The notes beneath the pieces are model-generated. The model was not told the DNA's origin. It saw nothing but the letters and a program-made list of their open reading frames with translations, and searched no databases. A DNA stretch of 62,088 nucleotides from Ancylonema sp. Its lineage: Eukaryota. Both the position numbers and the translations under genes were made by a program. The stretch is from the NCBI GenBank assembly GCA_050230475.1, contig JBFLGF010000123.1, positions 1 through 62,088 on the forward strand, in the 5' to 3' direction. Positions 479 to 51,227 of the stretch are shown in pieces (positions within the stretch are counted from its first letter, which is position 1; every line of letters begins with the position of its first letter).

Positions 479-3400
479 CTCTCCAGTATCCACTTTCGTC
501 AGCTCTGTCCGTAAAGCGTCCCCGCCGAATTCCAGCCCCCCTCCCATCCCATCCAGGGCATCCACCCCAAAGTTGAAGTCCACGCCTGCCACCGCCACGC
601 TGCCCCCATCCAGGCGGAGGGAGGCAGTCACAGCTGGAACTGAACTCCCCCAAAAAGAAACCCCTTAGAAAAAAAATGAGGCCCATAGTAAGCCAAAAAC
701 ACCCAGAAACACACAAACACAATATCCCCAAACATAACAAAATAAATAAGCGGGGCCAGTAACCCCCCCCCCACCCCGCAGAACAAAAACTCCATGCAGT
801 ACTGGGGACTGCCGCCACCACCCCCTCCCACCTTGCGGCACGAGGATCTGAAACTGGTTCGTGACCGCTGTCGCATTCCCACTCGCCATCTGGTACTGAA
901 CCAGATAAACCCCGGACACATTCGCAGTGAAACTACACCCCACCTCCCCCCCGCCGCCCAGGACGCACTCCAGCCTGCTCCCCCCCCTCCCACCCCCCGC
1001 GCCCCCGCCCCCCGCGCCCCCCCCCATGGGCTCCCGCGCCGAGCTCGCCACCACTGCCACGTCAGCGTCGCTCTGCAGGGGCACCGCGATGCCCCTGCGG
1101 TCCCTCGCCTGGATGGAGAATTTTGTGGGTCCCGCCCCCAGGCCGCCCCCCATGAGCTGCCCCCCGATATCCTCCCCGAACTCGTTGATTGCCGCCACCA
1201 GGTTGCCCCGCGGCGGGCCCGCGTACGGCTGCACGACGACACCTGGCGCGCTCTCCGCCAGCGAGGCCGTGCCCAGCTGCACGTTGATGTGGAGGCGGTA
1301 GAGGGACGAGGGACCGGAAGCGGGTGCTGGGGTATAGTCAACCCGGAAATAGCATCCCGAGAGGGGGGTGAGGGTGTAGGTGGGCAGGGACGAGGGTGCC
1401 CCCGCCCCCGCCCCCCCCTGGTCCACCGAAAACAGCACCCCCAGCCGCGCCTGATACCCGTTCGCGGTCGACGTGTTCACCGGGTACCCGCCCCTGTCCC
1501 TCAGACAGATCCCGAACGCGGCCCCCTGCCCCGCCACCGCCCCCGCCCTGAACCCCGCCCCGAACACGGTGCTGTGTCTGCGCGACACGGGGCCGGGGAC
1601 CACCCGCGACTCGTACGGTTTCGACGTGTACGGATCGCCCACGGGACCCCCCCCAAAGGTCGCGTGGTACTGCAGGAGCCCAGGGGCGGGGGGGGTGAGG
1701 GCGAGGACGTAGGTACCCGGAACCGGCTCCGTGGAGTTCAGGTCCATGCTGGACCCGGTTAACCGCGTCTCAGTGGTGACACCCGTCCCCGGGTCTGTGG
1801 TCTCGATGGTCACCACCGACATTTTCGCCACCAGGTCGTTCTGCCCTGACACCGGATTGCCGTACCTGTCGCGGAGGGTGAGGTTTAGGGTGCAGGGGCT
1901 GTCGGTGAGGAGGGGGTAGGTGGGCCCCAGTCCGGATACCGTACTGTGGGCGCCAGCTGGCAATGCTGCCTGAACGACTAGCGACAGGTTTCCGTTCCTC
2001 ACCACCAAGCCCCCCAGAGTGACCACCACCCCGTATGTGCCTGCCACCTGGGCTGTTACTTTCGCCTGGTAGATCCCCCCCCCCGCTGACTGGACGGCCA
2101 GGGGGGCGACAGCTGGCGTACCCGCCCCTCCTGGGACACTTGTCACGCTCACGTTGAACGGCACGGGTCCCGATGAGACCAGATTCCCGTACGAATCCAG
2201 GGCCGCCATCTGGACCATCCACGTTGCGCCAGCTGTCAGCGTCGGACTAGCAGGCCCCATCGCCAGACTCTCTACCGGGCTCACTGCGCCAGGTGTCACC
2301 GTCACCTCATACGACGAAAGAACCGCCCCCTGCAACAAAATCTCGACTGTAGCGGGCCCCGCTACAGTCGCGTTGTAGCTCCCCACATACACCCCGTCCT
2401 TCCCGTACGACTCCAATACCCCCGTCGAGTAATAACCCCCCCCCCCCCGCACCAGGAACTGGAACACATCCCCCCCCCCCCCCCTCTGGAACCCGTTCGA
2501 GTCCGCTGACTGGATCCGTATGCCAGCTGGCACCCCCACGACGGCCCCCCCCAGCCCCGACCCCGACAGCACCACCCCCAGGGGCGACGCGGGCCCGGCC
2601 ACCGCCTGAACCCTAAACGGCGACCCCGCCGCCTGAACCCCAAAACTCTGAACCCCGACGTCGAAAAACCCCACCCCCTGGGGCGTGTAGGTGACTGCGT
2701 ACAAACCCCCCCCCACGTATTCGATCCCCGAGGGGACCGTCCCAGCGACACCTGTCGTGTTCGCACTGGGCAGCACCACCACATCCCACGCCTCCCCCCC
2801 CCCCTCCACCACACTCTTATTGCCGTCTCTAGACGTGATGTGGAAAGTGGTCGGCGTCAGGGCTGTCAGCACCCCCCCCCCCCCAACCCCCTCCCCCCCA
2901 ACCGCACTGTCTCTGGGACTCACTACGGGGGACGACGATAAGGAGGGGGGGGGGCGGGATGGGGGTCCGAGGGTGGGGAGGGTGGGGGAGAAGGGGGGCG
3001 CTGAGCTGGCACCAGCAGGGGCAGCAGTTACCGTGACCGCAACAGAGCCCCCTCCGCTGACCACCTGGGAATTCACCTGGAGGGTGACAGTGTACGTCCC
3101 TGGGGTGGGCGCACTAAACAGAGCCAGGTAGCTCCCGTTATAAAGGTTCAGGTAGGGTACCGGTATCGAAAGCCCCCCGGATCCGGCATAAGAGAAATTC
3201 AGGAGGAGAGGGGGTGAGATCGGGTCAAACGGCCCCCCATTCCCCTGGGCGTCCCTGGTGGTCACTTGGATAGGTAAGGTCGTGCCAGCTGGCACTGTGA
3301 GAGGGCCTGACGTGTCCACCTTCGACTGGGCGGCGGACACAGGCCCCCTGAACACAGGCACGGAGAACGGACTGCCTGCCACGTGTCCGGCCGGGTTCCC

Positions 3401-6400
3401 GTCGACTGCCAGCTGTACCGACACCTGAAAACTCCCTGAGGGCGGCGCCACCGGCGGCGCGACGTAGGTCACCAGAAACCCCCCACCCCCCCCCAACCCC
3501 GCCAGGCTGGGTGGCACAGCCCCCAGGGGGGAAAGGGTGACTATCAAGGTATCGTTTGACCCCCCTCCCCCCTGCAGACGTCCCTGGGATGTCACTGCCT
3601 GTACATAGAAAGAAGCCTGTTCCCCTGCCATTGATTTTATAAGCCCGGATCCGAAGGCGTAGGAGAGGGGGGGGGAGGTTGGGGCGGGGAGGACGGTGAC
3701 TGCTAGCGGGGGGCCTGGGATGTATTCCCCCCCCAGGTACGCCTGCACCAGGAGACTCCCAGGTGTTTCCAACAGAGCGCCAGTGCTGCCTCCCCCCGGG
3801 CCCTTCGTGCCTACCGGCGCCCCCCCCTCCGTGCTGCCCCCCGTGTACGAGAACTCCAGCCCCCTGCTGTCGACATTTGGCACGACGTTATTCAGGCGGT
3901 CGCGCGCCGTGAGCGCGACAGCTGGCGGCGTGCCCTGGAGCCCGGTGGGGGAGAGGAGGGAGACGGAGGAGGTGGAGGCGGTTGGGGGGCCGGGGAGGAT
4001 GAGGAGGGTGCGGTTGGGACCCAGGACCTGCTCTCCGTTCAATACGACCGAGAGAAGGAAGGTTCCCGCCACCGGGGACGAGATCTGGGCTGCCAGGTGG
4101 CATGCCCCCCTGAGGCTCTGACAGAAGCTGAGCTGGCAGTCCGGGGACGGGGTGCAGGACCCGACCACGGACGGGGCGCCAGCTGTCACCGTCCCGTTGG
4201 CTGCCGCAGTGAGTTGGGCCAGCGAGATCTCACAGCGTGGAGCAGGGGGGATCGGCACGGGGTTCAGGTACGAGTCAAAGAGGTACACCTGTACCTCCCC
4301 CTGCTCGCCAGCTGTCAGGTTCCCCATCCCCGACCCGTGCACAGCCGTCACTTCCGGATCGACCTTCCCCGGGTACACCTGGATCGCGTCCCCACCGCCC
4401 CCCCCCCCGATCGCCGCCCCACCCAGCGCCCCAGCCAGCGTGAACCTCCCCGCACGTGTGAGCACGAGGTCCCCCAAAACCCCCCCCTGCCTGAACCCCA
4501 ACACCCCCTGCACGGGCTCCAGGTTCCCCACAGTCCCCAGGCAGGTGGTATCTGGGGTGGCCAGCACAGAAAACCCCTCCCTGGGGACAGCTGGCACCTC
4601 GTACACCTGCGCGTTCCCAAACTCGTCCCGGGCCACGAACGGGACGGACACCGCGGCGCCAGCTGGCGTCGATTTCGGCACGGCGCCCAGTCGACAGGTG
4701 GCGGCCGAGGAGGGCGCGGGAGAGACGAGGACAAGGGGGGATGTACCGTCTTCCCTCAGGACCCCCTCCCCTGCCACACACGTGTCACAGACCAGACTGT
4801 AGTTTCCCGCCACGTCCACTTTAAAGGTCGCATTCCAGCCCGCCCCCCCCCCCGCCCCCCCCCCGTTCGTATACCCCCCAACCGCGAGCGGGAACGACTT
4901 CCCCCCCCCCACCAGACTCATCCCCAACCGCATCGTCTGCAGGGTGGCATCCGAAACCGCTTCCAACCCCCTAGCATCCACAGGGACAATCTGCACCCAG
5001 CTCCCCACGCCAGCTGTTGCGTCCTCGAGCCTCCTAGCGAGCAGCCCCGCCACGGGCCCTGACGCGGTCACTATCTTCAGGAACAGGGGCCCCGTTCCGA
5101 TCAGATACCCGTTCACCGTCACATACCCGACGTACGACTCGTTCACCGCCCCGCTGTACGTCACCAGGTACGTGCCGTCCCCGTTGTCGGACGTCCGTAC
5201 GGACACGTCCGTGGACAAGGGGGGGATGCCCAGGGGGACATTCAGCGGCCCCGGGGCATCGAGCACCTGGGGTACGATTCCCACCTGAACCAGATCCCCC
5301 CCCACCCGCTTCCTGTTCCCAAACACGTCTGCCCCCCTCACCACAAACGAGACCTCCGTGTTTTCCGCCCCCCCCAGCGCCCCAGCCCCCTCTGCCGTCG
5401 TTTTCGACGCGTCTGCGGGGCCCGCGCTAATCTCCCACAGAAAGGGGCTGGCCAGGAGGGGCACCCCCCCCAGGAACACCTCCACTAGGGCCCTGCCAGC
5501 TGTCTGCCCACTGAAGAACGACATGTAATACGACCCGTTCGCGCCCCCCCTCTGTACAGTCACACTCCCCAGAGGCACGCCCCCGCCCCCGCCCCCGCCC
5601 CCCCCCGCCCCCCCTACAAACAGGACAGCTGTCGCGCTCAGGTTCTTCCCCTGGGCCGCATTCCCCAGAGCGTCTCTGCACAGGACTGTGAATCCGGCAG
5701 TGGAGTTCACTGGGGCGGAGTTGGGGGGGGGCGGGGCGGGGGCGGTTGTAATGGGGTCTGCTGGGCCCGCTACCACAGTGACAGCTGGCAGTTGGGTGGC
5801 CGCGAAGGTGTAGAGCACCCCCCCCCGGAGGACGCGGATGTCGGCGGTCCAACCCCCGGGTTGGGGGGGGGAGAAGGAGAGGGTGTAGGTGCCGGTGGGG
5901 GAGGTGGTGAGGGTGGCCGGGCCCGGGTATTGCAGGGGGGGGGTACCCGGGGGACCTGTCAGGGTGGCGGTTATTAAATCTCGGGGATCGGATTGGATTG
6001 CCTTGCCGCCGCTGTCCTGGAAGACAAAGCTGAGGGTCGCCACCTGGCCTGCTGCAAAGGTGCCAGGTGGCATCGCCACGAGGCCGACGGGTGTGGGGAG
6101 GGTGACAAGGACGGGGTTTGGGGGGGAGAAGGTGAGGACGGTGGTCCCTGTGGTGTCTGCCACCTGGACGACAAGGGTGTACGCGCCAGGTGTCTGCAGG
6201 AGAAGGCAACAGGGGCAGGGTATTGATACAGATCCTAAAAAAACACCCCAAAAAAAATAAAAAACAGGTTGGGTTGGGAAAAGTTTTTTTCGACTCCTTC
6301 GACAGAAAAAAAAGAGGTTATGAAACAACAAAATTCTGTGTACGACATAATATGTATAACCGGCCATATGTATCCCGGGTATTGCAATACCCGGTACTCT

Positions 6401-6948
6401 GTGTGCATTCACCCGTATGCCATATCCGTCTGGGAGGGTGTACAACTGTATATCCATATCAATGTATGCATACGTGTATGGACACATGAGTGCATGCATA
6501 TACTTATGAACACATAAGAGCGTGCATACATACATGGACAAATCAGTGCATGCATGTATACGTATCGACATGTCAGTGCATGCAAACTATACATGAGCAT
6601 GCAAACGTACCCCATCTCAAGGAGATGATGACCCAGAACCCACCTGCAACGTATAGTTGGCCACCAGCTGCACCGAGGTGCTGCCACCTGTTGCCAACAC
6701 ACGCGCCTCCGTCACCACTTCCGTACCCGGGAGGGGCCCGGTGAGCGCCACCTGGGACCCTGAACCGACCTCGCTGGAGAGGTTGCCACGTGTCCCATAG
6801 GCGAGCTGCAGCTCCAGTGCCACGCTGACACCTGTCCCTGCCACCACCGCTGAGAGACCGCTTCCCGTGAGAGAGGCGGCTGCGGTTTGGAGGATCGAAG
6901 GGGTGCTGACAGCTGTCGTTGCCAGCTGTCGGCTCCTCGAAGAGCCAC
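479..6948 (-). CDS. Very large filamin/Ig-like repeat protein (GEX2/FUS1-like architecture); 5' and 3' ends unresolved
   Basis: Exons 6948-6644, 6193-832 (5.36 kb, open) and 639-479 have phase-compatible GT-AG sites (LQ|TPGAY; PQG|VPAVT). About 15 filamin-type motifs (RDALGN, GADVFGN, RDEFGN, RDAQGN, LDSYGN, RDRYGN; DNGDGTYLVTY; GSPF). Further 5' exons probably lie at 7270-9006, with a hydrophobic signal-like MGRKL...LYCLLISVLL at 9006. Confidence 0.85.
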
Positions 6949-22398: not shown

Positions 22399-23933
22399 TC
22401 ATATTTCATATTGGGCTCCCATAAGGAACTTGTACTTGCTTGCATCACTTGCGAAATAGCTCTCCAGCTAGAACCACAACAAAAAAAAATAATGAGTCAG
22501 TCTCTCATGATGTGAGTAATAATCAGACGGATTGGGAGATTATGCGATGACTGTCCTGAACAAAATGCTACAATGGAGAACGCAAATGAAATAGCAAACA
22601 CATAACCTGGACAGGCTACATCCGAGTCCACGTAAATGATTTTTTTGACGAGCCACCTTGACGTTTACCTGTCGTGCGCTTACCTGTTGTGCGCTGAGAG
22701 GACATCATGTGCTTTCACATAGGGTAGTTGTGGACAAGATGTCGCTGTATAGATAAGATGTCCCTATATGTGATGGACAGAACGTCCCTGTACCACATGC
22801 AAGAACCAAGTACTCCGCATGCTGACAAAAAAAGGCAAAGTAAATGCGAATGCGAATGCGAATGCGAATGCGAATCCTGTTCATGGTTGAAGTTGGAGGG
22901 CTTGGCGAGGGCAAAGAGCAGACCTGAGGCAGAGCTGCGAAATGTTTCAGGAATGCGAGGATGTTGGGGCACGTGTCCAGGCTGCCTGGCACCAGAGTGC
23001 GCTGGAAGTCTGCAGTCTCGTACAAAAGAAATTCTGGCCACGTCAGCTTAGACCCTGAGGTAAACGCTATGTCGTCAAGGTACTCCTCAATGCGCTTGGC
23101 ATGGTAGAACCACTTCTCCTTCTCCGTGGCGATAATCTCTGCATGGTTTTCTTTGTATGGAACACCTGCGCGTGGATAAGGGCAAGTATGGAGAGGCAAT
23201 GAAGGCTCGAAAAGTGGTGAACTATAACGACACAAGTCTTCCTGGAAAAAGATTACCTGCTCGGTAGAAAGATAGTAGGTTGCACATTCATGTTTCATTT
23301 TTTTGCTTGCTTGCACTTTCAAGTCAGCTCAGCGTGTACCTCATCTTGTGGTTGATAACTGTACGAAAAATGAGCACACTTTGCTGCCACCAAGAGCATG
23401 CTCGGAATGATGGAATGCGATTTTTAGTCAGGGACGCTGTCTAATAGAGGGACACAATGAATAAAAAGGTCGGACCAGCTGGTCCAAAAAACTTGCGGTG
23501 ATTGCAACTGCGAATGCGATAAGATTTTGATTTTTTGAACGTATGACGATTACATACTTATGTAATAATAAACCAGCAGGTAGGGAGGAAATTTACCATA
23601 CATAGGGCACCTCCAGTCATTGAGGACGTCAGCGAACATATCCAGTGTTGCTGCCATCTGTGGTGTGGAGCCACCAAGACCAAACTTATTCCCAAGGTAC
23701 CGCAAAATGGCGAGACTCTGTGTGAGTTTGAAATCCCCGTCAATCAGGTAAGGCAGGTTCGGGACGTCCAGTCCAAGGTTGAATTTCTTATCACTCCACA
23801 CCAGCTCAGGGGGAGTATCATACGCCAAGTTGTCGAATTTGGCGTCTACAAAATGGAGTAACATGCGACTGGGAGCTCCCCATCCCCGGATGGACCAGTA
23901 ACCAAGCTGCATCGGTTTCGAATCCGTCGGCAT
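22399..23933 (-). CDS. Glutathione S-transferase, Mu-class-like
   Basis: Exons 23933-23597 (alternative ATG 23975), 23165-22924, 22467-22399. Motifs LGYWSIRG, KFNLGLDVPNLPYLIDGDFKLTQSLAILRYLG, KLTWPEFLLYE, FAALPQ|LESYFAS. Confidence 0.9.
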
Positions 23934-24248
23934 CTCTGCCAGCCTGACTTTTTTGTCGGGCCTCGATTCTGACATGAAATGGCAAGTCACAGAATTACGT
24001 GCAGACCTGTCGCAAACTCCTCCTTGATGCGGAGACTAGCAAATTCTCACAGTTCAAGATGTTGGTACGAAATGTCCAGACTTGAGCTCTTCAAGACACG
24101 TGGCGAGCTGATAGTGGCGGACTGTGAGCGTAATTCTGACGCTGAAACGGAGGCAGAATTTGTTGCTGACTTGCCGCTTTCTAGAAAGTCGGCATGCATG
24201 ACAGTTTCTGCCAAGATCCGGCAAAACGGCCGGGACGGGCAGAATGAC

Positions 24249-26801
24249 ATGGCTTCCCGCCAAAAACGAAACACTGACGTAAATCCGACGTGGGTGCAAT
24301 CCGATCCTTTCTCACGCTTTGCCACACCATCGCCAGCAAGCATCTGCATCTGTCTGTACGAATTAGCTGTTATTTCAGCTGTTCACCTCCCCAGGGTCTG
24401 AACACAATTCAGTTAAAAGAAGGCAGGGCACACACTCACACACACGCATTTTCCGTGCATTAAGAATGTTTGCTTCCCCCTCGCTTCCATCCTTGAAGGT
24501 AGGATTCCGAAGTTCCTCTGACAAATCAAATGGTTTTCTTGTCGATTCCCTGTCGATTCCCTGAGATGATGGGTTTTCTGCTGTTTCCCCTGTTTCCGCG
24601 ATGTCTGTTAGTTCCACTGTCGGATATCGGCCCGGTCGCTGACTCCATTTGTTCAGGTTGCAGCATTTCAGGCACTCCTGCCGGCACCAGGTTTGCCAAG
24701 CTTGGCAGATCCCAGGATCAGGCGCAATGCATGCAAGAGCCCTATAGCGCTCGGGAGAAATGAAGGCAGACATTGTGGATGGCAATGCGACCCAATCAGA
24801 AGGCGCGATAAGGACGTGCTTAGAGCTGCCAAGGGAGCTGTTAAGAAGGGGTTTGGAGGAGACAGCACGCGCAAGACTCGAGATTTTGACTTCACCGAAT
24901 GGACTCAGGTGAAAACCAATATCCGGTTCTCCACGCCCTCCATCTGGCGCTCCGAAAGTGCGCACAGAAAGTCATGGGCTGGTGTGGGCACCTTGAGTCA
25001 CCACCATTTACACATATTGTCTGATTACTCGCCTGTCAGTATTTATCAATCATGAACCAGTGCTTCCAGCACAACTCATGCTGGCCACTGTTGACCTATG
25101 TTGACCTGCGTTGACATATGCTTATGGAGCGGTATGCTAAGTGAGCAATAGCTGACGACGTGCTCGCTCCGTTTGTGCACCAAAACCTTCACATTTAAAA
25201 GGAACCACATAATTTTGTTTATGGAATGGTACTTTGCTCTCCCATACCCTTGGACGCGTCCTCACAGCCCTCGACTTTCGGCATCACCAGGTGACAGAGC
25301 CAGGAGAGGTTGCAGAGGGGGCGCGGAAAGCGGTTATGGTGAAGGACAAAGGGTGAGGCTGGGGCTGGGGCTAGAGCTGGGGCTGGGGTTGAGGCTGGAC
25401 CTGGGGCTTCAACTTGTGGCAGCGAGTGCCGCCTGTCTCTCTGCACGCCATGAATTTGGTATTCATGGCCCTGAAAGAAGGTCCTAGGCAAGAATGTGTG
25501 GCACGTATGATGTATCATGTGTCCTGCTTTTTTCCCTTTCTAGTGGTCATAAAAAATACTCGACATACATTAGAAGTTATCAGGGTTCATAGAATGTTGT
25601 TTTCAAGAAGGTTCCTACTCACAGATTCCCTGGTCACGTATTCACGATTGTTGGAACCACCTGATGTCAGAATCACCTGGCTACTTTGCGGCAATGTGCG
25701 ACCCCGCTTCCTAAGAAAAATCTATAGGAGTTTGCGAATATTTTATGGTTCCTGACTCAGAATGCTTCCGCATTCCGTGCAGGTATGTGATCATTAGTCA
25801 CGAGGAGAGCGTTTATGCAATCGAAGCCAACTGCCCTGCCTGCCAGTGTCCAGTGGTCAAAGGCAAGGTAAGTCTTCTTGCTTCATCTAGACTTGCATTC
25901 GGGCCCCTGCAGTGTCCTTGGCCAGCATTTTGGACACCAGTCGCTAACTCTTGGTAACCAGTTGCTAAGACTTGGTAACCAGTCGCTGATGATGCCTGTC
26001 GCAGCTGTTGCTATGCTGTGCCCGTGGGCTTGCCATTTGGCAACCGATCTTTGGAAGTATCAAGCCTGTCAAACGCCGTGCTGTAGTCCAAGATATCCAC
26101 TCCCCACTCAATCCATAATATTTATGTTGGTCTTGTCATCTATCTCCTTCGGAATTCCTTACAGGATTTCTTGCATCTCTGTGCGTCATTTCTGCTCCCA
26201 GTTTGTCTTTGAACTGCTGATTTGCCCAATCGACAATGTCAACCTTTTATTTGGTGTAGGTGGAAGTAGGGGAGGAAGGTGATGTCGGCATCGAATGCCC
26301 ACTATGTCATTCTGTGTTCACACTGGCGGACGGCTCGGTGCGGAAGTGGTGTCCAAAAGACGGGCTCTTGACTGGGATCATCGGGGCAATGAAAGAGAAA
26401 ACAGAACGGACCGATGCACTGGTAAGTAATGTGGGGAGATAAGTTCTGCGAATTGAGATAGGTGCATACATTTGGTGATGCTGCGACACTGTAACAACAT
26501 ACCCGTAGCGGCGACATTGAGGATGAAAGGGGAAAAAGAAGCTAAGAAGACAACTCCTGTTTGGTGCAGCATTGTATAGCTGTTCAATTTCCATTCATAT
26601 ACATAATTATAAATCGACAAAAGAGCTTTGGCGCGTCGAGCACTTGTAGGTAGACACGCAGACAGGAAGGTTTGCTATGTGGTTCATAAGAAGATCCGAG
26701 CCAGTAGTTTCACTCCTTTTCTGGGAGGTTTGGTGCAGGTAAAGCCTGCCCGAGTTTCTGCCTCTGGTGCAGTCTACATGCTCTTTAATCCCTCAGCTTG
26801 A
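24249..26801 (+). CDS. Plastid-targeted Rieske-fold ferredoxin-like protein with atypical ligand boxes
   Basis: Exons 24249-24278 (tentative), 24657-24908, 25291-25352, 25783-25867, 26260-26421, 26739-26801 give ...KKGFGG...EWTQVTEPGEVAEGARKAVMVKDKGYVIISHEESVYAIEANCPACQCPVVKGKVEVGEEGDVGIECPLCHSVFTLADGSVRKWCPKDGLL...VKPARVSASGAVYMLF*. Confidence 0.82.
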
Positions 26802-27791: not shown

Positions 27792-29427
27792 TCAAGAAAC
27801 AGATTGTGTTTCAGATGGCACTGGACAAGCCGGATCTTTGCCGACGTCGTCAGCAACGCCACCCTCGTTCCCAGCTCTCCTTGAGGTGCGCTTACATGCT
27901 CCTCCATAAGTTGAGACAGCCGACCTCTTCCTGGAAGAGTTTTCGAGGCTCTTGGCCTTCAGGGAGGAGGACCGGACTGGGCGCCGTAACCGAGCTGAGA
28001 CAACAGCATCCAAAACTCCCGGCTCCACACTCAAAGAAGATTCACCATGGACGCTCTGTTTCACCATTCTGCTGATACGCTCAATGTCCATCTCTTGCAC
28101 CGGCTTCAGTAAGAAATCCTCAGCACCTGTCTCTAAACACCTGCAGAAGCTTGCACAGAAGGGGTCAGGAAGACTAGATAGATTCGGAGTGCTGCAGCCT
28201 CCTCCAGAAAACTTCCAAGCATTCTTGACAGAATCATAAGACATACTGAATGATTCTTTCGTATCTGAACTTCACCCTAGCTGCTTTCTGCTGACTGGAG
28301 ATATGATATGCAGGACTTGCAATGCGTATTTCCTTGCAATATCCCACAGCACTGGTTAGGGGGACATGAAACAGAAGCCTGTGCATGAAGCTCACGGAAA
28401 CGCAAACGATGTCGCCTGGAGGGGTCTGCATGTTGTGTACCTGGTCACGTTTTCGCTGATGTTTTCGGAGGACATGATTACCATGGGTATTGCCCGGAAA
28501 CTTGCAACTTCCTGCAAAAGTAACACAACGACATTGAATTGCTGCCAGAGGAAGCATATAGCTTTCAGATACCGCCGGCAAGGCGGTTTGGTAGCGAGCT
28601 ACTGTGGTACCAACTAGCACCTCAAACCTCTAGTCATCCCCACAGATGTTCATGTAAGAAGAGGCAAAAACTCGATGTTGAATCGTATCTTTTAACGAAG
28701 ATTCTTGATAACGCGCAAAGACCTCTTGACCTTCTAAACTTCTATCCTTCTCAGGAGGATCCTTCAAGGGGCTTTCAGGGGGTGTCTCTAAACATTCCAA
28801 TCCGTCTCCGATCGCGGGGACATGATATGATACTCCTCATGTTACTGTTGTGGTGTAAAGTACCTTCACTCGCTTCAATAGCTCCTCTCCGCTCATTCCC
28901 GGCATGTGAAAGTCGCTAATGATCAAATGGAACGGAGGAGAGAACTGCCACCGAAGAGCCAACGTCCATATTAGCATTTCCTAATAAAGAGGCGATAGGC
29001 GCCTGCAACACCGGACATCAGACTACATCGCAATGACTGGCGTACCTGTTGTCCAGTGGAGCTGTCATTTGAAAGCCCAAGGAGCTCCAACGCTTTATAC
29101 GCACTGTTCGCACAAGTGACTGCAGTAGAACGAAAAAGATATCACTCAACTGCAAACAGGGCCCTTCAGGCAGACAGGAATATTAGATATTCGACAGTCT
29201 TACAGTTGTCTCACGGGGAGTGACGGAGTCGTTATTTGCCAGAAAACCCTACACTGATGCAACACCTGCAAAATCCGTCCAAAACAGCGGCTTCTACCTT
29301 TGTAAGCTTGACGTTGCAGCAATCGCACGACGAGCGTTCTGTCAAGCGTACTATCGTCCACTGCAAGTACACGAAGTTCTGGAAAAGACGTTGCACTCGG
29401 AGTCTCAACAAGAGCCATTGAGCGCAT
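27792..29427 (-). CDS. Type-A two-component response regulator (ARR-A-like receiver protein)
   Basis: Exons 29427-29298, 29119-29046, 28944-28864, 28511-28441, 28140-27792. Motifs VLAVDDSTLDR, ALELLGL, LIISDFHMPGMSGEELLKRVK, IPMVIMSSEN, CLETGAEDFLLKPV; short C-terminal tail with no Myb/GARP domain. Confidence 0.93.
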
Positions 29428-33806: not shown

Positions 33807-36800
33807 CTACACATTTTCCCTCCGCACTTCCTCCACGACCCTCGCTCCCACTCTATCCAGCGACCGCACACTTACAGTGGCTTGCAACTTCCCTTGTTGT
33901 AAGAACGCCTCTACCATGGCCTGCCCTATCACTTCCCCCTTCTCCACACTGTCTGTTATCGCTACCGACGTCGGCCCAGCTCCACTGATCGCGCACCCAT
34001 ACGCGCCCGTGACGCTCGCAGCAACTTTGACGGCGGAGCATCCGGGGATGAGTTGACTTCTTCGCGGCTCCACGATGAGATCGGAAGCTGCATCGAGCAA
34101 GACACGGCACGTGAATAACCGAACCTCTTCACATCTCTCCTTGTCAAGGTTTTGCATCCGGAGCTCTACATTCGTAACGGTACGGGGGACCATCATGATG
34201 CATTGCAATATTGCATATCCCAAACGAAAAACTCAGAACCCCCCCCATAAAACAGTAAAAAAGGGAGGGGGGGGCTTTGCCGAAAGATATATATATTGTT
34301 ATTGTTATTGTTATTGTTATATGCTATTTTTTTTGGACAGCGTTCTTTTAGAGAGGTTCCATTGTATAAAAAACCAGAGCGGGTCTTGCGGCGGGCCCAG
34401 ACAACTAGTATATATTGAACCAATGTAGCGTGGGATCCCCATCCTCCGATACCCACATCCACAACCCATTCCTGATCCTCAACTTTCTCCCACCGCCCTC
34501 GCAACGCACAAGAATTGCTTTCACTCACCCAACGCCGCCCCTAGCAAGCTCGCATTCCCCGTCAGTATTGCAGCAACCAGAGCCGCCGCTTGACTGCTGT
34601 TGGCCACGTGCGATTTCATACTCACCTACAACCCGCAAAGAGACAAAATGGTGGTCGATATTGAGCGTTGCATGCCTCCTTCGTACGGCGTCTTTAGAAC
34701 TCAAATCGTTTCCTGTACTGTCAAAATATTCTTATATCGAGGTTTGAGGGTTTGTACTCAACGGGTCGATTCCATACTATCGCACAAAGAAACTGGGGCC
34801 CCACTCTGTATGTACGATAGTGGTTTATATTCATCTCAGTTCTACTAGAAAGAATGAGTACACTACAAATAGTTTTCAGAGATGTAGGTTTTTTTTTTTG
34901 TTGTTCTTTTCACAAAAAGAACCCTCAAGGTCCCTCCCCACAAAAAGAATCCCCACACCCAACAACCCTAACAACCCTAACAATCTAACAATCTAACAAT
35001 CTAACAACCTAAAATCTAATTCTCCTATCCTAGTTCTGCGAACACCCCCCACCGACTACCACTTCCCCACACACCCAAATTTTTTATTTTGCAAAAAAAC
35101 GGAAAACCCCCCCAAGATCACTACCATCCTCAAGCACACAACCCTCCCCAACAACTTATCTCACACACACCCACTCAGGAGCGTTTGTGCATAAGCAAAT
35201 CCGTACATAACATATCTCTGATATTTCCAACATCAGCATCTCTGTGCGGGTAGCACAGCCCTCATCGCGAAAATGATAACATCATAACACAAAGCCAACA
35301 TAACATTATAACATCATATCATCATAACATCATATTACAAAGACATCATAACATCATAACATCATAAACTCAAAGACATCATAACATCATAACATCATTA
35401 CATCATAACGTCATAACATCATAACATCATAACATCATAACATCATACTACAAAGACAACATAACATCATAACACAAAGACAGCATAACATCATACCATG
35501 GTAACACCAAGACAACATAGCATAATAAGTCAAAGACCCACCTCAGTGGGTAGCGCGGCCCTCATGGCCTTGGTAGGCGCCTCAAACGCGGGCGTGGCGA
35601 CCACAAAGAAAAGGTCGCGGTCTTCCGGGTACGGTAACCGCAGAATCTCCAGGGGGTCGTAGCTGCGGATGAGCACAAACCCGCCCAGCAGAGCGGGTCC
35701 CACGTTATCCGCGTGATACCCGCTAACCGTGGCCTCGGATCGGAGACCCGCCACGACGAGGTCGTCTTTGGAGAGGGGGGAACCGAAGAGGGCATTCACC
35801 TGGAGACCAGGGATACCAGGGATGAGGGGGAAGGGGGGGGAGGTATAGTGAAACCTGTCTTCACTAATACTGTGCTGATGAATAACCTGTGTTGCTTATA
35901 GAATGACTTCCACCCGATTTCGGGTTATCATCAACCATTCTTGATTGATATTTTTTCCCGGTGATGACAGTATGAAATCAGTTAGGTTCGACTGTATATT
36001 GAATTAGAGGGATTTTGGGGGACACACACTGGTTGTTGTCTATTCTCCTTCCCACCAGTGTGATACAACTGTAGAACCGTCCACGGCACTGACCTGAATT
36101 CTAGACAGCCACACATGTCTGTCCTCTATATCCACCCCCCCCCCTCCCCCTCCCCCCCTCCCCCCATATCATGCCAGGTGGCGCCATCCTCACCGCACAG
36201 GCCGCGGCTGCCGCACTCGCCGCGCTGGACCCCAGCCCGCTGCCAAGCGGCAGACCCTTGTGCAACGTCAGTTCTACCCCCCACGATTTCACCCCCAGCA
36301 GCTCCAGGGTGGCCCCTGCAGCGATCCCCACGCAGTTGTCGCCAGCCTCAAGACTCAGTTTGCCGCCGTCGCCGGTGATGGATACGATGCGGACGCTACC
36401 CCCAGGGACGGAGTCGGACAGCTGGGCGGGGGGGGGGGGGGGGGGGCGCAGAGGGGAGGGAGGGAGGAAGAAGGGAGGGAGGGAGGGAGGAGGGGAGGGG
36501 AGGTGGGTGGGGAAGGGGGGGGGGGGGATGAGGGTGAATGTCGTATTGAGCGATATTGGGGAATGGGAGTGCAGGTCTGAACATAATCCGGACGAAACCA
36601 CAAGAGGTGTAGTTGAGTGCTCTAACCCTCAATACCACTTTCTGTGTGCGATGATGATTGTCATACTCGAAAATTGGAAACCCTAAAAACTCCAGGATTT
36701 TTAGTCGAAAGGACCTCCTACAGGGTTTTGAAAACCTTCGAGTTTCATCCCCTTGCTCGAGCAGTATCGCCCCCCCCAATGAGCCCAAATATTTGATCGA

Positions 36801-47089: not shown

Positions 47090-50000
47090 TGTGAGTGCTT
47101 TCTTCTGCCATCGATGCAAGAATAAAGCACAATTCTCTCAGACAACTCTTGAATCGACAGATCACGTCATTACAAACGTTCACACAACAAAAGTGCAACT
47201 TTGAAGTAGAAAAGTCTGATTACAGAATTCAGCATACAAGCTCAGACCTAGTACAGTCGATTGTTACCTGGTCAAAGAATCTACTGGTATTGAAACTACT
47301 TCGTCAACTGCCAATCATATCCAAGCATTCTGCCACATCAACTAGTTCTTATCGACACTTGTGCCAGATGGCCAAGCTAATCATTGAAACAAGGACATCG
47401 GCCTGCAGCCGGCCAGCAGCCTGCCTGCAGCCTGCATTTTCTAAATAACGACAAAACTAAAGCTAAATTCCCGGTATTGCTAAAATCGATATAACGACAA
47501 AAGTTCACAGCCCCAAAAACTAACACCCCCTCCCCGGGTACTTTTGTATTCCTCCAAAAACGATAACCAAAACGATATCGATTTTACAAAACATAAGTCG
47601 ACAAAAAACTCACTAAATAAACTGATCAATGAACCATCTACAATTATTTTGCATACACCAACCCCCCAGATCACAATTCTTCTTCAACGCCTTGAGAGAC
47701 AGTGGTTTTGTCAACATATCAGCACCTGGTCTTCATTCTTGACAAACTGAGACTGATCTTTTTCTTGGACACCCTCTCTCGAATGGAATGATACTTGATC
47801 TCGATGTGTTTGGAGCGACAGGATGTTGATCTCGATGTGTGTGGAGCGCTTGTGAAAAACAGGATTCTCAGCAAGATTCAAAGAACTCTCATTGTCTCCC
47901 AGCAATAGCACACCCCCCCCACCAAGACCCAACTCCTATTGCATCTGGCTCAAATAAATGGCCTCATTTCCAGCAGCACTCAGTGCCAAATACTCACTTT
48001 CACAGCTTGAGTGTGTACCACTTTTCCAGCTCACAACAGCTCCTCCACGAAGAAAGACATAGCCAGTTCTCCCCTTCCTAGTGTCGACGTCGTCACCATG
48101 ACTAGCATCTGAGTAGCCGATGACTGGCAAATCATCTTTTCTTATACATCAGCGCCCCAAATTGACAGTTCCCTTGAGATATCGCAAAACTCTCTTTACC
48201 CCCTCCCAATGCTTGTCCCCTGGCTGCTGACTGTATCGACACAAGGAGTTAACAGCAGCTGCCAGATCAGGTCTTGTTCTAGAAGTGAGATACAACAAAT
48301 TGCCCATTGCAGACTTGTAGCCCACACCCTCTATTCCAGCAGATTCAGAAGCAGATTCACAGTTTGCAGAAAATTTTACACCCAGCTCAAGAGGGGTAGC
48401 ATCATCAGGATACCATTCTGGAACAACTTCTAGATGATCTTCGTCTTCATCGCCTCCACTAGAATTGCTGACAAGTTCTGGAAGATTTGCACTCTGAGGA
48501 ATAGGGGATCTCGGTAGCTGTGGCAATAGATTTCCCACAGCATCAGGGATCTCTTCATCGACGGAATTTGGATCGTTATAGGCAGGTTGCCCACCTCTAG
48601 AAATGCCCCCTCCGAGACCAACACTACCCCCTCCTGCTCCTTGATCAGCTGCATCCAGATCTGGCCGTGACATTTTTGTTTCTGCAACTGGCTCATGCAC
48701 TCTTGCCTTCTTGCCAATTTTCTGCCCCCTCCACCAGCTTTGCTTGACAGATTCATCGAAGTCTGCATGACCAGTGCCAACGTTGTGTACTTTGTTCGTT
48801 GCAGGATCCCAGACTCGGTAGCAAGGACTGTCGGGATTCCATCCACCTAAAACACCAAGCCAAGCCAGCGCACTCATTTTCCCAGCCCGACACTCATTTT
48901 CCCAGCCCGATCTTGTTTGAGACGAGGAGCTGCATCTTCTTTGCTGCGAAGTATTTCCACCCAGGATTTTCGGCTGTATTCATCGACGAGCACCATGTTG
49001 TACACTGCTTCCCCTATTGATGGTGGATTGAACGGCCCTGCCAAGTCCACCGACACTCTTTTCACCAACTTCTCGTCGAGGATGAGGTTTGTCGTGTGCC
49101 TTCCCCAGCTTGCACCCTTCACAGTTTCGCAGAACTCTTGAGATGCCTCTTTTTAGTCCTCGTACAATATGTTGTCGTGCCACATTTTTTAGCACTCTCT
49201 CATTTGCATGCCCAAGTCTTGTGTGCAGGAGGTTGATTTCGACAGCAACTACAACAGCTTCCCCTTAAGTAAGTTGTTGATGTCGAACCGGTGTGCAGAT
49301 TAGAGTTTTTCGAACTGTCGATGTTTCTTGCAGAGTGCAAACTTGTTGTCCAGATTTTTTGTAAAGTGGAATGATGCCACCAGCTTTTCCACTGCAAGTG
49401 TAAGACCACCCTGCTTCTCTGGCTTTCTGACCGGTAAACAAATTAATGCGCATTGCAGGAATGTACAAACATTTCTTGAGTGTTACTCCTCCACACACTC
49501 CCTCAGTATTCAGCTCAATTGTTCCCCACTGCTTCACTCGCACACTTCCGACCAGATGATGCATGATGACCTCGTGTGGAATGTCTTCGATGATTTTGAA
49601 AAGATTTTTTATGCCCACAAGAATGGTGACTGGAACCATCGTCGAAAAGGAAATCTTTCTCTGCATCATCATCATCTGCAACATTTCCTTCACAAATTTT
49701 GGAGCAACGACAGCTTCTCCATGACCACAACTCTCCTCCTCATCGATTTCACCAACGAAAGCTATTTTTCTCCTAGTGCGTACCCCTTTTCTCCGTATTC
49801 GTGGAGCTTCGTTTTTCTTGTCGAAACATGTTAATTCCACATGACCAATGGCTCCACATCTGCATTCTTCGTTTTTCTTGGAGCAGTCTCTGCTGTAGTG
49901 ACCTGTCTCTCCACAAGTATAGCAGGAATGTCCTCCACTTGATCCATTGCCTCCACGTCTGCCTCCACGACCACCTATGATTCCACGATTATCTGCTAAA

Positions 50001-51227
50001 TACCCCCTGAATGTACCCCTGCCTCCACGATTGTCGATACCACCACCTCTGCCTTGGCTTTATTTTTTTTGTTGCGCTGACCACTTAGCATAGTTTGCCT
50101 CTACAACTAGTGCCTCAGCATCTTTGACATCTTTTTCTTTTTTGTCATCCAGCTCATCCATTCCCATTTGCCCCCAGATCCAGCTGATCCCAGGTGCCTC
50201 TTTCTGTCTATAGTAAAGCTTCTTCAACATGCCGTATTTTGTTCTTGACATGGCCAGCAAACAATGCCATCACCTGGTCTTCTGCGCTGACCTAGAAATT
50301 TTTTTTTATGTACACACTCTCTGATGATCGACAGAGAAATATTCTTGATTTCTCTATCTGGCATCTTTTCATCGATCTTGAAAGAGTTCAGCTTTTCTTT
50401 TGCAATCTGTCGAAGTTCTGGAGACACCTTGTCATACTCCTTTGTCAGATAGTCCCACATCGCCTTTGGATCTCGTTCAAATTGTTCAAGTGATGTAGCG
50501 ATGTCGTCACTGACAAGTTGCATGAGTAGCATGACTGCCTTCTTTGATCTTTTGCGGAAGCTTCGACATCAAGTGTATTCTGCTCCATTTCTGCTTCATT
50601 TGTTGGCCAGTGTTCATCATCATATCTGGCTGTAACCTCAGTTGGAATAGTCTCTGTTACTTTGCACATCTCAAGGCACTCAACATCATCAAGAGTAGCT
50701 GAGGCCTTAGATCTCCATGCTTGAAAGGTAACTTTATCTCCATCCAGAATGCAGTACCGTGCTCTGGATACCACTGTGAGTGCTTTCTTCTGCCATCGAT
50801 GCAAGAATAAAGCACAATTCTCTCTCAGACACAACTCTTGAATCGACATCGACAGACAGATCACGTCATTACAAACGTTGACACAACAAAAGTGCAAGTT
50901 TTGAAGTAGAAAAGTCTGATTACAGATTTCAGCATACAAGCAGACCTAGTACAGTCGTTTGTTGCCTGGTCAAAGAATCTATTGGTATCGAAACTACTTC
51001 GTCAACTGCCAATCATATCTAAGCATTCTGCCACATCAACTAGTTCTTTCTTATCGACACTTGTGCCAGATGGCCAAGTAATCATTGAAACAAGGACATC
51101 GGCCTGCACCGCAGCCGGCCTGCAGCCTGCCTGCAGCCTGCATTTGCTGAATAACGACAAAACTAAAGCTCCCGGTATTGCTAAAATCGATATAACGACA
51201 AAAATTCACAGCCCCTAAAAACTAACA
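47090..51227 (-). mobile_element. Ty1/copia LTR retrotransposon, degenerate internal-deletion derivative
   Basis: LTRs 47090-47525 and 50775-51227 (TG...CA), 5-bp TSD GTCTG, PBS TGGTATCCAGAGC (50773-50761), PPT GGGGAGGGGG (47535-47526). Copia-order remnants: gag zinc knuckle CYTCGETGHYSRDC, protease FDDGSSHH, integrase LHTRLGH/VSVDLAGP, RT end YKSAMGNLLYL..TRPDLA, RNase H GYSDASH/SCESEY/DNES; many frameshifts. Confidence 0.96.

Follow-up and report, generated by a model that had tools for sequence, protein, structure and literature searches.

A spliced gene of Ancylonema sp. for a Rieske-fold protein whose four conserved cysteines probably form a mononuclear metal site

Results and Discussion

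A Six-Exon Gene for a Rieske-Like Protein

The window analyzed in this study, a 62,088-nucleotide stretch of contig JBFLGF010000123.1 from Ancylonema sp., is gene-dense eukaryotic DNA that includes a Rieske-like gene on the forward strand (Table 1). The homologs described below point to a streptophyte-like green plant as its source. Other features of the window are also listed in Table 1. The N-terminal part of the glutathione S-transferase finds its best Protein Data Bank (PDB) matches among animal mu-class enzymes (E 1e-24), and to our knowledge the mu class is not among the usual plant transferases. The filamin-like frame is unusually long for a single exon, and its GC content is 61–68% compared to ~45% for most of the window. 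The receiver gene is one that we take to resemble a plant type-A response regulator.

Table 1. Positions of the Rieske-like gene and of other features in the window
Feature	Positions	Strand	Description
Filamin-like frame	665–6586	−	1973-aa stop-free frame with filamin/Ig-like repeats
Glutathione S-transferase gene	22705–24035	−	GST_N and GST_C domains; head-to-head with the Rieske-like gene
Rieske-like gene, exon 1 (alternative)	24249–24278	+	10 aa; choice of the original prediction; frame also open; weaker donor
Rieske-like gene, exon 1 (preferred)	24466–24498	+	11 aa; opens the likely transit peptide; best donor, no acidic residue
Rieske-like gene, exon 2	24657–24908	+	Remainder of the likely transit peptide, followed by basic linker and first Rieske strand
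Rieske-like gene, exon 3	25291–25352	+	Rieske large-domain strands; phase-2 intron common to Sphagnum homolog
Rieske-like gene, exon 4	25783–25867	+	Box 1, C-P-A-C; weak Pfam Rieske_2 match, profile 29–50
Rieske-like gene, exon 5	26260–26421	+	Box 2, C-P-L-C-H; Pro-loop Cys (26350); insert helix; weak Pfam Rieske_2 match, profile 60–83
Rieske-like gene, exon 6	26739–26801	+	Last two strands and stop; without membrane helix
Receiver gene	27792–29141	−	Split response-regulator receiver gene; weak PF00072 match
GHMP kinase exon	36101–36628	−	Homoserine-kinase-like
LTR-retrotransposon remnant	48149–50945	−	Fragmented; carries zinc-knuckle, Pol beta-barrel and SH3-like domains

Exons 2 through 6 of the Rieske-like gene are joined through GT-AG introns of 317–430 nt to give a single open frame that ends with TGA at 26801. 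The resulting protein is 35–50% identical to its homologs, and it matches a profile built from 21 of these, with the model itself left out, at E 5.8e-56. Exon 4 was found by tblastn with six of the seven homologs tested (E ~1e-5 to 1e-7), and homolog fragments begin and stop at the edges of exon 5. Moreover, the last four introns agree in both residue and phase (0, 2, 0, 0) with those of a Sphagnum-like homolog, beginning with the one that ends exon 2, and the first intron is of phase 0 and lies inside the N-terminal extension in both genes. The Sphagnum introns were located by comparing an intron-free contig (L001, 99% identical to the Sphagnum protein), which was taken as a spliced transcript and maps as six blocks, with two genomic contigs.

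The original prediction, which was made from the sequence of this window before homologs were consulted, had likewise divided the gene into six exons. Exons 2 through 6 stand, given the open frame and the four shared introns, and the spliced model is supported by the intron positions and phases as well as by the profile score. Its first exon fares less well. By a crude donor score of our own, this exon reaches 5.0, whereas the preferred one reaches 7.5, the best among 10 candidate first exons, and the latter appears to fit better as the start of the coding region.

An N-terminal extension of ~90 residues precedes the folded domain and contains few acidic residues. Because this acid-poor segment has no counterpart in the cyanobacterial relatives, the protein is likely to be imported into the chloroplast. 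At the other end, the chain stops a few residues past the last strand, and no C-terminal membrane helix is present: the highest 19-residue Kyte–Doolittle mean in the window protein is only 1.14 and falls in the N-terminal extension. A search for an amphipathic membrane-docking helix was similarly unremarkable (percentile 0.45–0.95).

Four Invariant Cysteines Occupy the Ligand Boxes

Both ligand boxes are found where the original prediction had placed them and with the substitutions that it described. In box 1, cysteines are encoded at positions 25832 and 25841, with alanine (25838) where histidine is expected. Box 2 carries cysteines at positions 26296 and 26305, and cysteine takes the place of its histidine. 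Conservation of these four residues, on which the prediction depended, extends to 21 of 21 aligned full or near-full homologs, such that all 22 complete members of the clade, counting the window model, read CxxC/CxxC. The histidine position of box 1 is S, A, T or V in every one of the 21 homologs, and that of box 2 is cysteine in 22 of 22. Neither C-x-H nor C-x-x-H is therefore present, and the four-Cys proteins should not be filed as Rieske [2Fe-2S] proteins. The database label of this name that they carry is probably wrong.

A further cysteine adjacent to box 1 (25847, two residues after the box) had been noted in the original prediction as an extra residue. It is private to the window gene: each of the 21 homologs has Phe instead, which places it outside the conserved site.

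Fold and Ancestry

A structure model was computed for a homolog (P0084, 43% identical to the window protein over 133 aa) from an alignment of 32 rows. Its mean pLDDT is 77.7, rising to 86–88 in the box regions. The model resembles Rieske ferredoxins and NirD (Foldseek E ~1e-6), its fold-match lists are filled by Rieske proteins, and superposition on the 2de5 ferredoxin (Z 16.4, rmsd 1.5, 103 residues aligned) points to a Rieske fold. In addition, four of four full homologs pass the cut-offs of PF00355 and PF13806. The Rieske scaffold that had been predicted from the window alone is thus borne out by its homologs. Membership in the NirD family was considered and rejected, because two of three four-Cys homologs score 24.2–24.4 bits with TIGR02378, far under the cut-off of 74.65, and the third has no listed match.

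The best sequence match in the PDB is 8jng (E 1.3e-5), a CxH/CxxH protein that is, by its entry title, a Rieske subunit of the Porphyridium PBS-PSII-PSI-LHC complex. Among prokaryotes, the best matches are soluble cyanobacterial Rieske proteins (E 1e-13 to 1e-18), a type that extends to Chloroflexota, to some Gammaproteobacteria and to two archaeal MAGs as well (L007–L063). The boxes align without gaps to those of the CxH/CxxH relatives (C-P-H-L-K-L-P with C-T-S-C-K-F-P, and C-P-W-H with C-P-L-C). In this register, the first histidine of the cyanobacterial relatives is lost, the residue after it has become cysteine, and the second histidine is replaced by cysteine.

Searches also recovered a second, larger group of relatives, whose named members among the matches listed are all chlorophytes. 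At the box positions these proteins read S-x-x-Y/F and V/T/S-x-x-D. Across 100 aligned rows, the four ligand positions hold no cysteine in 96, one in 4 and two in none. This ligand-less group (P0050, P0100–P0198) is large and well conserved, and some of its members are 286–410 aa long.

A tree was inferred from 59 rows after removal of the five ligand columns, with a sampling that comprised neither PSB33 nor algal CxH/CxxH members. The window protein falls inside the four-Cys clade (support 99/98). The four-Cys and ligand-less clades are sisters with moderate support (89/81, long branches flagged), and both are separate from the CxH/CxxH proteins. Because the first cysteine of each box occupies its ancestral position, the four-Cys state would most simply have arisen directly from a ligand-bearing ancestor.

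Distribution

When exon 5 was used as a query against 1.84 billion representatives, 54 matches were returned, 20 of which proved on reading to be true relatives. Many of the others are long repeat proteins with only a short aligned stretch, including four that were read as RCC1-like repeats, and all such matches were excluded. Later profile searches gave 26 and 152 matches (120 listed). Named four-Cys members come from charophytes (Klebsormidium nitens, Chara braunii and Chara vulgaris), bryophytes (Sphagnum, Physcomitrium, Ceratodon, Marchantia, Riccia and Calypogeia) and ferns (Adiantum, Ceratopteris and Pteridium). No named seed-plant protein is among the matches listed. Because several matches are unnamed and the search was word-based, the disappearance of the family from flowering plants is best treated as a lead.

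In prokaryotes, a search of GTDB contigs with the exact four-Cys pattern gave four candidate stretches, none of which was confirmed. The family profile matched in 40 of 251 cyanobacterial genomes, and CxH/CxxH was present in each of the 37 prokaryotic matches inspected, namely 30 of the 42 cyanobacterial places, six further loci and one plasmid locus. The last of these came from a tblastn search of plasmids that produced 14 weak matches.

In the Atlas, the Chara homolog has two close neighbors in features or in structure, both of them clusters without Pfam domains that consist mainly of diatom sequences (149 and 201 aa), and a Pfam-less diatom cluster is the nearest feature cluster to that homolog (0.92). 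These clusters may extend the four-Cys family. A query of the Atlas and the PDB with a one-exon match (P0001) returned nothing usable.

A Predicted Mononuclear Site

The spacing of the four cysteines has a precedent in protein engineering. According to the accessible text of the review PMC2946596, the H44I/K45C/H64C mutant of the Sulfolobus solfataricus Rieske ferredoxin ARF (Iwasaki et al. 2005) forms a rubredoxin-like mononuclear Fe/Zn site with the ligands C42-x-I44-C45 and C61-x-x-C64, and this mutant took iron. The box sequences of the natural family are also akin to the knuckles of five cyanobacterial rubredoxin loci that were fetched (C-T/S/R/K-x-C-G-Y and C-P-V-C-G/S). Given the engineered spacing, the rubredoxin-like knuckles and the all-or-none occurrence of the four cysteines, a mononuclear Cys4 site holding one or the other metal is predicted with good confidence. 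Such a site was one of three options in the original prediction. It has become the leading reading on the strength of the spacing and the all-or-none cysteines, and the other two, an all-Cys cluster and a thiol switch, now appear less likely.

We propose that the ancestral cysteine of each box was kept, that the box-1 histidine was lost as a new cysteine arose one residue on, and that the box-2 histidine gave way to cysteine. The two loops would then close as a rubredoxin or zinc-ribbon knuckle around one tetrahedral ion. More speculatively, this ion might clamp the small domain in a purely structural role, and the protein might be a binding (accessory) factor on the stromal face of the thylakoid, as is the cofactor-free PSB33/TEF5, rather than an electron carrier. 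A location near the photosystems is suggested, again more weakly, by analogy with TEF5/PSB33 and 8jng.

Iron and zinc Cys4 sites cannot be told apart by sequence. We nevertheless slightly favor structural zinc over redox iron, because the sister clade persists without ligands, because TEF5/PSB33 functions in PSII assembly without them (PMC12164590, accessible text), and because the net charge of the domain is near neutral (−4 to +5 across 22 sequences). The weak Pfam matches over the box region are to zinc ribbons and not to rubredoxin. One point against a structural clamp is that the ligand-less sister clade may have changed function. Our best explanation, which is tentative as to the metal, is that this spliced nuclear gene encodes a soluble, likely chloroplast-imported protein of predicted Rieske-ferredoxin fold in which two CxxC pairs would clamp one ion, with zinc the foremost candidate.

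A less probable but serious alternative is that the Cys4 site is filled with iron in vivo. In that case the protein, though built on a Rieske scaffold, would carry single electrons in the manner of a rubredoxin in the chloroplasts of non-seed plants. The family probably descends from a CxH/CxxH Fe-S ancestor, and its knuckles include an aromatic residue five positions after the first cysteine, as in rubredoxins. Furthermore, the engineered ARF twin binds Fe(Cys)4 (PMC2946596), and a redox-active plastid rubredoxin, RBD1/RubA, is described as required for PSII assembly in the accessible text of PMC12164590. However, the sister clade copes without any ligand, no fused reductase or partner occurs among matches of 78–438 aa, and PF00301 gives no match at E up to 0.1 in four of four homologs and none in the window exons. 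Small electron carriers usually have a strongly acidic surface, and the near-neutral charge of this domain also speaks against such a role. The four-Cys protein is thus not a rubredoxin by family, but it may work like one.

It is unlikely that the cysteine pairs serve instead as a dithiol/disulfide switch or an oxidoreductase site with no permanent metal. CxxC motifs can act as redox-active thiols, plastid zinc-finger proteins can show disulfide-isomerase activity, and the Pro loop supplies an additional cysteine that is invariant in the four-Cys homologs. However, this cysteine is also present in the ligand-less clade and in 8jng, and so it is older than the ligand switch. Moreover, two CxxC pairs that lie on facing ligand loops and occur all or none are better suited to a shared metal.

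Continued binding of a [2Fe-2S] cluster, through the four cysteines or through three of them and the histidine that follows box 2, is a still fainter prospect. That histidine is invariant (21 of 21 homologs), and the accessible text of PMC2946596 reports both that a lone His64Cys change in the archaeal scaffold yields a 3Cys-1His cluster and that one rubredoxin variant can hold [2Fe-2S]. The same source states that plain His-to-Cys swaps in this scaffold impair cluster assembly, and that the CxxC/CxxC spacing yielded a mononuclear site. The histidine also occurs in the cyanobacterial CxH/CxxH proteins, where it alternates with Arg and Lys, and it therefore need not be a ligand. Finally, although no terminal branch in the four-Cys clade is longer than that of the window protein (0.74), and although its first exon is uncertain, an artefactual gene model or a decaying pseudogene is very improbable for a six-exon open frame that shares four intron positions with a homolog, matches the family profile so strongly and keeps all four cysteines.

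Implications

Searches of the open-access literature turned up neither an account of a Rieske family that naturally carries CxxC/CxxC boxes nor any mention of six homolog accession numbers, and the ligand-less chlorophyte clade was likewise not found described there. The four-Cys Rieske variant is real, conserved and apparently undescribed. It is possible, as far as the case for iron allows, that the family represents a natural switch from Rieske to rubredoxin chemistry, in which a redox-active Fe(Cys)4 site would make it an electron carrier, so far unrecognized, in the plastids of charophytes, bryophytes and ferns, one that flowering plants would have lost. If this is true, then one family would display all three states (2Fe-2S, single metal and no metal). 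Because a natural family has the designed spacing and stands beside cluster-binding and ligand-free relatives, cofactor switching on one scaffold becomes testable with natural proteins, and genetics should be easy given the homologs in Physcomitrium, Marchantia and Ceratopteris.

Comparison with Known Systems

PSB33 (LIL8/TEF5) resembles the window protein in being a green-lineage protein with an N-terminal extension and a Rieske-like domain without histidine ligands. In contrast, PSB33 as represented in the accessible sources has at most one cysteine and has one or two C-terminal membrane helices. Identity with PSB33 was rejected given the absence of a membrane helix, the four invariant cysteines and the distinct Physcomitrium accessions (XP_024377109 for PSB33, XP_024403560 for the four-Cys homolog). 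The window gene is not a PSB33 orthologue, a distinction drawn from accessions and features since PSB33 lies outside the tree. The original prediction had looked to PSB33 for a relative, but the ligand-less chlorophyte clade and the soluble cyanobacterial and algal CxH/CxxH proteins are nearer.

The soluble PSB33-like proteins of cyanobacteria and algae (such as Chlamydomonas Cre02.g093650 and Porphyridium 8jng) are related to the four-Cys family in sequence, share its W/Y-x-P insert and the helix after box 2, and also have no membrane helix. However, they keep CxH/CxxH and are predicted [2Fe-2S] binders, whereas the four-Cys family has lost both histidines. In its accessible text, PMC8003979 lists PSB33 together with a soluble CxH/CxxH PSB33-like protein that has no land-plant ortholog; the four-Cys form is not mentioned in the accessible parts of that article or of PMC6006212. 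Members of the ligand-less chlorophyte clade (Micractinium PSC71881, Gonium KXZ50122 and Chloropicon QDZ23357) are ~29% identical to the window model and have the CPK loop in common with the four-Cys family.

Rubredoxins (PF00301, including plastid RBD1/RubA) likewise have two CxxC knuckles composed of very similar residues. In the four-Cys family, however, the whole fold, of ~125 aa, is that of a Rieske protein, and the distance from the first to the third cysteine is 24, compared to 33 in the five rubredoxins.

Structural comparisons showed long ago that Rieske ligand loops resemble the knuckles of rubredoxins and zinc ribbons, and the switch of cofactor has been accomplished by design (PMC2946596, accessible text). 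Unlike the ARF H44I/K45C/H64C mutant, the family that includes the window protein is natural, is conserved across streptophytes and is likely plastid-targeted. Nevertheless, the two have in common a Rieske scaffold, the identical CxxC and CxxC spacing and the same three changes.
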